From positions 225,291-289,290 of the IMG/VR virus record IMGVR_UViG_3300021431_002946: 64,000 nucleotides of DNA; one strand, given 5' to 3'. Made by a program: the position numbers and the translations under genes. Under the pieces are notes generated by a model. The model was not told the DNA's origin. It did no database searches and saw only the letters and a program-made list of their open reading frames with translations. This document shows, one piece after another, positions 24,752-27,800 of this stretch. Source of the DNA: a virus (Duplodnaviria > Heunggongvirae > Uroviricota > Caudoviricetes). Numbering within the stretch: position 1 is the first letter of the stretch; every line of letters begins with the position of its first letter.

Positions 24752-24871
24752 ATGTCTAAAGAATTTGTGGACTTCTCAGTTCGTCCACTCAACCGTTCTG
24801 GACCTTACTATGGGTTCGAACTTGCAGAAGATCCTCTGCATCTAATGCCAGATGGAACTGTCTTTCACAAT
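24752..24871 (+). mobile_element. split intein C fragment (IntC, 40 aa)
   Basis: ...GPYYGFELAEDPLHLMPDGTVFHN followed by +1 Ser of SGKS; own RBS and ATG. Confidence 0.8.
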
Positions 24872-27800
24872 TCTGGAAAAAGTGTTTGTGAACAGAGTAT
24901 TGTAGGACACGTTTCTAGATTTGCTGACAGATTCCAATTAGTAGGCGTAGATGTAAAGCGTATTTAATTCAATGCGCATTTCTATTGAACTCTATTGCTC
25001 AGAGGTGTATATATGATCGTATTCATATATGCTAACGGTATCAGCAAAATAAGCATAGTTGGTTGGGTGTTACAACAGTTGCCAACTTTTATCCAAATGA
25101 CGAAACAGCTGACTAAGAGAACCTAAGCCTAAAAATAGGTCAGTTAAAGGTAATACCGTGGGAAGACTTATTATAAAGGAAATAAATTAATTATGAATGT
25201 TTATTATGTATATGAATGGTATAATATTGATACAAATATAGTATTTTATGTTGGAAAAGGTAAAGGTAATAGAGCATACTCTGATAGAAATAGAAATAAA
25301 TTTTTCTTAAACTATAAAAAAACTAACAATGTAAATGTTAGATTTGTTAAAACTGATTTATCTGAAGAAGATGCTTGGGATTTAGAAGAAAAACTTATTA
25401 CATATTATTGGAGTATTAATCAATGTTTTACTAATTTTCATCCAGGTGGTAAATCATTATGTTGGAATAAAGGTAAAAAATTTGACGAAGAATATGCAAA
25501 TAAACGTAGACAAGTACCTGAACAACATAAAACCTCTAAAAAAGTTATTAGAACTGATATAAAAACTAATGAAAGTGTTATATATGGTTCTTTAAATTTA
25601 GCAGCAAGAACTAATAATATAAGACCAAGTTATTTGTCTATGATGTGTCATCATCAAAAACCTAATATACGTAATAATTTTATATATAATTTTTATAATG
25701 AGTAACCTGTATCGACTATTCCCGTGAGGGAAGTACTCCAGAAGATGAGCTACTGGCTAGGAAGTGGTAGAAGTACATTTGTACAAGATATAGTCAGTTT
25801 ATTATGGAAACATAGTAAGATAATGGTTGAATTTAATTTGTTGAAGGGCGTGAAAGGTTGTAAAGGTGTAGCGTTAGATGTACCTACAGCAGCTGCAACA
25901 ATTGAAAACTTTCAAAGGCAGATGATGAACAGATTCCAGTTCATGCAGGATCAGCAAGTTAATAACATTTACAAGATAAAAGATAAAGAAGTCGATTATT
26001 ATACTTGGGCAGGACAAAAATATCAATTTGATGAATTGTTCGAGTTGAAAGTTGACTTGGATGAGAATGATCGAAATTATTCAAAATTGAAAATGATCTA
26101 TAATGATGGCAGACAACCAATGATCATCACAATTCAAGAAATTTATGATGGAATGATGGAAGGTAAATGGGATGGACGTCACCCACAAATGCCTGTACAA
26201 AAAGGAATCAATTCATACATAAATAAAGATTCAATACGTAAATCTAAAGGTATTTTTGTTCCTAAAATACTTTTATTTATGGCGGATGAGCTAAGATTCA
26301 TTTGGCTCGGTATATTTTAAATTTCTTATAATTTAAAATTACAAAAATTAACCCATTGAATTGCTGGAAACTCTTTAGAGCTTCTTAAACTACAACATAA
26401 TATCTTAAATGATATAAGTGTGAATGTTTAAAAATTAAGAAGATTAGACAATCAGCAGCTAAGACCGAAAGGTAAAGTTCAGAGACTATCGAAAATATAG
26501 CTTAAGAGAAATACTTAAGTGAAGAAGTGAGTAGAGTAGCAGAAATGCGAAGTGGTGGGTATTATGTAGAGGTTAATACAATACATAATAAAGATATAGT
26601 CCAGCATATATAATAAATATATATTGCAGAAACGAACTTATGAACTCAGATGACTATAAATCAGTAGATACGTTTAAAACCTGTTTAGGATCTATAGCAC
26701 GTTTAGGACGTGCTGCAGCTACACATTTAGTTCTTGCTTAACAAAAAATAATTTTTAAAAGGTAATTAAAATGAAATGTTTAATTTGCAATCATGAAAGT
26801 CCAAATTTTAGAGGTCTTGGAAATCATATTAAAAAAGCGCATAAAATAAATAGAAAAGATTATTATGATAAGTATTTAAAGAAAGATAATGAAGATATTT
26901 GTCCAGTATGTGGTAAATTTAATAAATTCATTAATCTTAATATTGGTTATTCTAGAACTTGTAGTGTTTCTTGTGGTCAAAAACATCCTGATACAAGAAA
27001 TAAAATTGAAAATACAAATATTAAAAAATATGGAAAATCTACACCATTAATTACAACTGAGTCATTAAATAAAAGTCATAATAAAAATGCAATGACTAAA
27101 AAGAAAAATACTATGCTAGATAAATATGGTTATATTAGTGCATTTAGTATAAGTGAAACACAAAATAAATGTAAAGAAACAATGATTCAAAAATATGGAT
27201 GTAGTAATCCTATGGTTTGTAATTTTTCATTATTTAAAAAATATAATGGTACAAGATCTTCATATGAGCAGTTATTAAAAGATACATTTGAAAAGAATAA
27301 TATATCTTATATATATGAATATAATAAAGATATTCGTTATCCTTATTTTTGCGATTTTTATTTGCCAGAAAAAGATATATTTATAGAAATTAATGGTTTT
27401 TGGATGCATAATTCGCATTGGTTTGATAAAAATAATAATGAAGATTTAAAAATATTGAAACAATGGAAGAAAAAAGCAAAAACTTCAACTCGTATGAATG
27501 CAGCTATACAAATATGGACAAAGCATGATATAGAAAAACGAAATTGCGCTAAAAATAATAAATTAAATTATGTTGTTTTATGGAATAAACAAGACATAAT
27601 TGATTGGATAAATTCAAATTTTAAAATTAGGCATGATTACTAATTAAAAATTATGACAGGCACAAATATAAGCAATTATATTTGTTAACCCATTGAATTG
27701 CTGGAAACTCTTTATGCTATTTAAACTACAACATAAGAATGAAATATATCTAAGTGTGAATGTTTGAAAATTAAATAGATTAGACAATCAGCAGCTAAGT

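Follow-up and report, generated by a model that had tools for sequence, protein, structure and literature searches.

What completes an intein whose C-terminal end opens the second half of an ATPase gene, and where are the other parts encoded? The question is raised by a 64,000-nucleotide stretch of DNA (the window) from the virus record IMGVR_UViG_3300021431_002946, in which a small gene starts with a 40-residue C-terminal intein piece (IntC) that runs directly into half of a Walker A motif. The window represents bases 225291-289290 of this single 467,383-bp record, window base 1 being genome base 225291. The record is flanked by direct terminal repeats, has a CheckV completeness of 100% and a G+C content of 27%, and its source is an uncultivated giant phage with a complete genome. 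The phage probably makes a membrane-anchored FtsK/SpoIIIE-like ATPase from three genes by means of a natural three-piece split intein.

The intein end and the interrupted ATPase gene

The IntC open reading frame (ORF) extends from an ATG at window position 24752 to position 24967 and encodes 71 amino acids, the first 40 of which end in ...FHN and are followed by SGKS (24872-24883). The ribosome-binding site, the ATG, the 40 residues ending in His-Asn and the subsequent SGKS had all been read correctly, coordinates included, in a first-pass annotation of the window. The same annotation gave the gene a promoter motif of its own; a sigma-70 consensus scan of the plus strand from the terminator-like hairpin to the ATG found no promoter. 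An in-frame stop codon is situated five codons 5' of the ATG, and the intein part of the gene therefore cannot be longer. The C-terminal His-Asn and the Ser that follows it (...FHN/S, the slash marking the junction; 24863-24874) are retained in relatives. The 40 residues are matched by tblastn with the homologue P0032 (E 5e-9), and a start of this type, 40-41 residues long, is also present in four other phage genomes. Judged from these matches, the resemblance to an intein is not due to chance.

The insertion point is exactly within the Walker A motif, as the first-pass annotation had proposed: the intein-less homologues P0001, P0002 and P0009 read GGTGSGKS(V) and have no insert. Upon alignment of P0001 to the window, five collinear blocks are found, which define the exons (Table 1). 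The IntC ORF is thus exon 1 of the C-half of an FtsK/SpoIIIE-like ATPase that carries four probable group I introns. The start of the gene had been recognized before; that a probable group I intron closes the ORF, and that five exons make up the C-half, had been missed. The five exons joined give 464 residues without a stop, and every exon is free of stops and frameshifts. At all four junctions a T ends the 5' exon and a G ends the intron, and the exons rejoin in frame. Three of the four introns match the Rfam family RF00028, but with scores of 35-42 bits and E between 2e-6 and 3e-8 they fall short of its gathering score of 50, and a search of intron 1 against Rfam gave no match. In relatives, introns occupy other positions of the same ATPase gene, a pattern that mobile introns would be expected to give in a functioning gene.

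P0001, which is 654 amino acids long, matches PF01580 (FtsK_SpoIIIE) with 67.9 bits at a cut-off of 24; exon 2 of the window alone reaches 15.5 bits, and frames of the genome reach 16.3 and 12.6 bits. Walker A would be completed where the two halves are joined, and exon 2 contains Walker B (...ADE). A virtual product composed of the N-extein described below and the five exons is 703 residues long and free of stops, and shares 59.7% identity with P0001 across residues 8-652.

Three genes for one intein

The N-half of the ATPase was sought by scanning all ORFs of the genome with a regular expression for half of a Walker A motif followed by Cys or Ser, and by searches with TIGR01445 and PF14890. 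The scan gave a single fitting match, which lies outside the window (Table 1). The first-pass annotation had reported that the window contains no N-half and had placed the partner at a distant locus, and both statements hold; its description of IntC as an orphan does not, the N-half gene being present in the same genome. The N-half consists of a 239-residue N-extein, with two transmembrane helices and an FtsK-like N-domain, which ends in GGTG and is followed by a Cys, 15 further residues and a stop codon. An unrelated AAA/kinase-like gene begins 14 nt past this stop. The Cys directly after GGTG is found in this genome and in four relatives. No relatives of the N-half were found among GenBank phages. 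The genome search for G.TG followed by an N-terminal intein piece (IntN) starting with Cys or Ser, suggested earlier, has thus recovered the partner and no full-length IntN: in place of the canonical ~100 residues, the N-half carries 16 intein residues, encoded at genome 216621-216668, before its stop.

Because 16 and 40 residues cannot build a HINT fold, a missing piece was sought. Using P0031, P0007, P0029, P0032 and P0100 as tblastn queries against the whole genome, only genome 221381-221638 (E 2e-15) and IntC were matched. The former belongs to a gene for a 170-residue protein, the middle piece IntM. Residues 1-85 of IntM form a separate domain, here called X, and residues 86-170 correspond to intein residues 17-101. 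P0031, P0007 and P0008 are N-halves from other phages in which a canonical IntN of ~101 residues continues after GGTG, and this IntN is homologous past its residue 16 to the C-terminal 85 residues of IntM. In agreement with this, the alignment to the Pfam model Hom_end_hint begins at model position 1 in P0031 and at position 16 in IntM and P0029. The lengths of the three pieces, 16, 85 and 40, add up to 141 residues that align end to end with the other forms, with no overlap or gap at the breaks, and the breaks coincide with two known natural split sites. The intein is new, as had been proposed, but it is not the two-piece intein envisaged earlier, since the N-half holds just 16 of its residues and a third gene supplies residues 17-101. 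In this genome the three pieces are 5 and 29 kb apart.

The intein hidden Markov models (HMMs) PF14890, TIGR01445 and TIGR01443, run against the whole genome, miss all three pieces. Their sole match is an unrelated cis mini-intein at 386 kb, and a phmmer search with that intein against all ORFs of the genome gave no matches.

The N-half, IntM and IntC genes occur in the same order and on one strand in four other complete or large giant-phage records, IMGVR_UViG_3300011005_000632, IMGVR_UViG_3300021400_002728, IMGVR_UViG_3300032167_003270 and IMGVR_UViG_3300026549_000001. In the last of these the three genes are within 4 kb, and IntM is separated from the IntC gene by ~90 nt. The N-half tail has 15-16 residues in three of the four relatives; in the fourth the frame extends 23 residues past GGTG, the first 15 of which align. 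Cys1 and HN/S are kept in all five genomes, although the pieces share just 32-65% amino-acid identity. An exhaustive phmmer search found ~20 cluster representatives with the full architecture of the 170-residue IntM, 158-205 residues long; in 20 IntM representatives the N..H of block B does not vary. His131 of block B is kept, the Thr position is an Asn (N128), and NxxH is also found in a contiguous relative.

Selection on the pieces was estimated from the two closest genomes (G001 and G002, dS 0.55-0.86) as the ratio of nonsynonymous to synonymous substitution rates (dN/dS). The ratio is 0.089 for the N-extein, 0.03 for the 16 intein residues of the N-half, 0.135 for the X domain, 0.045 for intein residues 17-101 and 0.026 for IntC. 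By this measure every piece is under strong purifying selection.

Other members of the family are organized differently. In P0029, P0100 and P0032 the X and intein domains continue straight into IntC and the SGKS C-extein, and these are atypical two-piece forms, broken at the S1 site. A contiguous cis form (L051, IMGVR_UViG_3300017698_000036) is situated in the GGTG/SGKS P-loop of a DnaB-like helicase. All forms that are broken after residue 16 have the X domain, and the canonical IntN and cis forms lack it. In relatives, endonuclease-like ORFs are found exactly at the break points of the intein, either 3' of the N-half stop or 5' of the IntC start (L017:2262-2735, L015:4868-5986, L044:10770-11831); they are T5orf172/GIY-YIG-like, or have a zinc finger plus a DUF7487-like domain. 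The IntM gene of three genomes comes right after a sigma-70-family gene or overlaps its end (L036:401-1654, L037:1989-3395 on the minus strand, and L038:803-1498), which suggests that IntM is co-transcribed with a phage sigma factor.

The predicted structures fit this division of the intein. The AlphaFold2 (AF2) model of the IntM of this genome has a predicted local distance difference test score (pLDDT) of 89.7, and its top Foldseek match is an intein (probability 0.94). The AF2 model of the fused homologue P0032 has a pLDDT of 88.7 and a predicted template modelling score of 0.77. Its residues 69-199 align with solved inteins, starting near residue 12 of these and reaching their last residue; the Prp8 intein is superimposed with Z 15.5 and a root-mean-square deviation of 2.3 Å over 128 residues, gp41-1 with Z 11.6 and VidaL with Z 9.3, and there are 24 chains at Z of at least 8. 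As the alignment begins at about residue 12, the middle and C-terminal pieces are predicted to form a HINT core in which the only missing strands are those that the N-half tail of 16 residues would contribute. The X domain (residues 1-80 of the IntM model) aligns with about residues 45-150 of solved inteins, the Prp8 intein giving Z 8.4, and the top 15 matches of its structural search are all inteins or other HINT-fold domains. A profile comparison of X with the HINT core is weak (probability 4%, 25 columns). On structural grounds only, X is thus predicted to be derived from HINT.

Table 1. Positions of the intein pieces, exons, introns and associated elements (window coordinates unless marked as genome coordinates)
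Feature	Position	Strand	Remarks
Terminator-like hairpin	24616-24645	+	3' of the upstream lipoprotein-like gene, which it separates from the IntC ORF
Shine-Dalgarno sequence of the IntC gene, AAGGAGG	24738-24744	+	7 nt 5' of the ATG
IntC piece	24752-24871	+	40 aa including the initial Met; blocks F and G, intein residues 102-141; ends in His-Asn
Exon 1, C-extein part	24872-24961	+	Ser+1, second half of Walker A (SGKS); 30 aa
Intron 1	24962-25825	+	864 nt; group I core motif AAGATATAGTC at ~25777; no Rfam match
Homing endonuclease ORF in intron 1	25193-25705	+	GIY-YIG-type, phrog_314
Exon 2	25826-26292	+	Walker B end (...MADEL)
Intron 2, probably group I	26293-26629	+	RF00028, 39.2 bits, E 1.6e-7, under the gathering score of 50
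Exon 3	26630-26738	+	...IARLGRAA... motif
Intron 3	26739-27961	+	Homing endonuclease ORF, then group I core at 27647-27960
Homing endonuclease ORF in intron 3	26771-27643	+	DUF7487, phrog_3339
Exon 4	27962-28075	+	
Intron 4, probably group I	28076-28467	+	RF00028, 41.6 bits, E 3.1e-8
Exon 5	28468-29082	+	Acidic C-terminal tail and stop codon
N-half gene	genome 215904-216671 (L010:2905-3672)		255 aa; 33.4 kb upstream of IntC, 8.6 kb before the window start
IntM gene	genome 221135-221647 (L036:1636-2148)		170 aa; between the two halves and on the same strand

Other intein-like elements are present in the genome. The 386-kb intein is a complete 142-residue cis mini-intein (Cys1 ... HN/C; PF14890, 44 bits) in the GxGKT loop of a helicase ORF at genome 385335-386657. 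A second membrane-anchored FtsK-like P-loop gene, at genome 120038-121327, has a contiguous intein placed two residues earlier in Walker A (..GG/P...N/TGGGKS). With its Pro start and its block F Cys this intein looks class-3-like; the ORF stops 18 residues past it, and in P0007 and P0008 an insert of the same type is in tandem with the split intein. A free-standing HINT core of 121 residues (genome 140120-140485, L035:2121-2486) has no extein and lacks block A and the final strand. It was considered as the middle piece of the intein described here and rejected, because it has a block F-like end, overlaps IntC and matches the family with E of just 0.5-0.8. Residues 18-128 of 139 of DnaB inteins in the PDB are matched by it with E 4.6e-6, its conservation in G001 is 66%, and it might serve as the middle piece of a different multi-piece intein; a search of longer proteins for its partners or host was empty, and the terminase families searched for in the genome are absent. 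A PolA-like polymerase is encoded by two genes, at window 41608-43119 and 43398-44564 (plus strand), and its N piece ends in a tail of ~60 residues with the pattern of a HINT N-lobe and no nucleophile.

A phage-encoded Cas2-Cas3 fusion of 903 residues (window 20981-23692, plus strand) is situated two genes 5' of the IntC gene; it comprises a Cas2 N-terminus, Cas3 HD, a DEAD helicase and a Cas3 C-terminal domain. Window 52380-64000 (plus strand) is occupied by 53 tRNA genes in an array that serves most amino acids; a 193-nt Rfam tRNA match within it (56270-56462), not called by ARAGORN, may be a tRNA with an intron.

Proposed splicing and its alternatives

The first-pass annotation had suggested that the ATPase is assembled by protein trans-splicing from distant loci. 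The distant partner is there and the two-piece intein is not. The anatomy, homology, conservation and fold of the pieces are observed; that they splice, in which order they assemble and what X does, we infer. Piece 1 would be the N-extein (...GGTG) fused to intein residues 1-16, with Cys1 first. Piece 2, IntM, would be a free protein without an extein that contributes the X domain and residues 17-101, including the block B histidine. Piece 3 would be residues 102-141, with the His-Asn end, fused to the C-extein that begins Ser-Gly-Lys-Ser, and its mRNA would have to lose the four group I introns beforehand. IntM and IntC would pair in the manner of a canonical split intein into a HINT fold still short of its first strands. 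The N-half tail, 16 residues long, would then dock as these strands, in the way of the atypical split inteins broken at the S1 site. Splicing would follow by class 1 chemistry, that is, an N-S shift at Cys1, transfer to Ser+1 and cyclization of Asn. Joining the Gly to the Ser would complete the Walker A loop GGTGSGKS of the 703-residue ATPase. The P-loop, and hence the enzyme, should be present only once all three products have met.

The pieces might instead form a HINT-like non-covalent clamp, a "protein zipper", that holds the halves of the ATPase together without splicing. The intein-like tail of the fractured PolA-like gene, which has no splicing nucleophile, provides a precedent in the same genome, and a reaction among three molecules may be slow. 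However, Cys1, the block B His, the penultimate His, the terminal Asn and Ser+1 are all kept, in the five genomes and family-wide. An unspliced junction would also leave 141 or more extra residues within the P-loop, where the glycine-rich turn of Walker A could not form, and the clamp is accordingly considered unlikely. That the fractured gene is a decaying relic, its ATPase no longer made and paralogues substituting for it, is quite improbable. Although four introns have been inserted, the gene is in three parts, and paralogous FtsK-like genes are found at about 37.8, 120 and 445 kb of the genome, a relic would not be expected to show dN/dS of 0.03-0.13 at dS of ~0.6-0.9 in all pieces and the extein, exons free of stops and frameshifts, or a layout kept in five genomes that have diverged so far.

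An ordinary two-piece intein, for which 16 and 40 residues suffice or a full IntN is encoded elsewhere, the 170-residue protein being unrelated, deserves very little credence. The 56 residues lack block B and most of the HINT fold, the regular-expression, HMM and tblastn searches of the complete genome found no other IntN, and the 170-residue protein exactly matches the missing residues 17-101. It is true that one synthetic three-piece design, as summarized in Weis et al. (2023), gave some splicing without its middle piece. Alternatively, intron halves could trans-splice and join the parts as RNA, with translation then yielding a normal two-piece or contiguous intein. The C-half is indeed rich in group I introns, but every piece keeps a start and a stop of its own in the five genomes, IntC has a strong ribosome-binding site, and the kinase-like gene starts 14 nt past the N-half stop. 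An RNA-family search around the N-half and IntM matched nothing intron-like, and the N-terminal X domain of IntM would break any fused reading frame; there is hardly any room left for this explanation.

Splicing of a three-piece intein is favoured over these accounts, but some observations weigh against it. The phage has other FtsK-like genes, so the fractured ATPase need not be essential. The Thr of block B is replaced by Asn, though this variant is family-wide and includes the contiguous cis form. The dN/dS value of the N-half tail, 16 codons long, is based on very few sites.

Relation to known inteins and significance

The phage intein combines features of systems that are known separately. 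In canonical split inteins (Npu DnaE, gp41-1, NrdJ-1) an IntC of ~40 residues is likewise attached to the C-extein and the break is at the homing-endonuclease site, but just 16 intein residues, against ~100, are attached to the N-extein of the phage. The atypical S1 split inteins (AceL-TerL, GOS-TerL, VidaL), which have an IntN of 15-25 residues, share with it the short IntN, here of 16 residues, Cys1 and Ser+1, and an origin in phages or metagenomes; the fused relatives P0029, P0100 and P0032 are true members of that group. An IntC longer than 100 residues on the C-extein is found in those three relatives and not in the phage, where the long IntC has been recut at the canonical site and the X domain stands ahead of residue 17. 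With the canonical split inteins and the "fractured genes" described by Dassa et al. (2009, PMC2677866) the present locus further shares endonuclease-like ORFs that, in relatives, abut the break points, and an insertion in a P-loop. The contiguous helicase intein L051 is 36% identical to IntM and shares the context GGTG/C ... HN/SGKS, but is a single polypeptide without an X domain in a different host protein.

The closest likeness is to inteins made in the laboratory. Engineered three-piece inteins of the same N/M/C topology do splice (10.1101/2023.01.30.526203); such constructs (Sun et al. 2004; Weis et al. 2023) are derived from Ssp DnaB and Rma DnaB, and from Npu DnaE and gp41-1 with a second cut in the N-intein. 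Like the phage set, they have N, M and C on three polypeptides, an M piece without an extein and an extra cut within the canonical N-intein. The phage set differs in being natural and conserved under selection, and its M piece has an additional HINT-like domain of 85 residues. According to Weis et al. (2023, 10.1101/2023.01.30.526203), inteins have so far been found in one or two genes and more remain unproved in nature, one suggested reason being that very short intein fragments are hard to recognize. A literature search that covered few subscription journals found three-piece inteins only as engineered constructs; priority is not certain. On balance it is likely that this is the first natural three-gene intein, conserved in a clade of giant phages, that it arose by combining the S1 and endonuclease split sites, and that it turns the P-loop into a natural three-input AND gate. 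It would also need the previously undescribed HINT-derived domain X, which is present only in S1-broken forms and might keep the strand-less core in place, or act as its chaperone, until it is joined by the 16-residue peptide.

Whether natural inteins exist in more than two genes is a stated open question, and the locus offers a concrete and testable example. For protein engineering, the natural N/M/C set may permit a strict three-input ligation with a peptide-sized N piece of 16 residues and, possibly, a built-in solubility or capture domain. In the family one insertion site is found in four states: without an intein, with a canonical or an atypical split intein, and with the three-piece one; together with the contiguous form at the same P-loop motif of another protein, these make up a series for the study of split-intein evolution. 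"Orphan" fragments and "dead" intein ends in giant phages merit re-examination for missing middle pieces.

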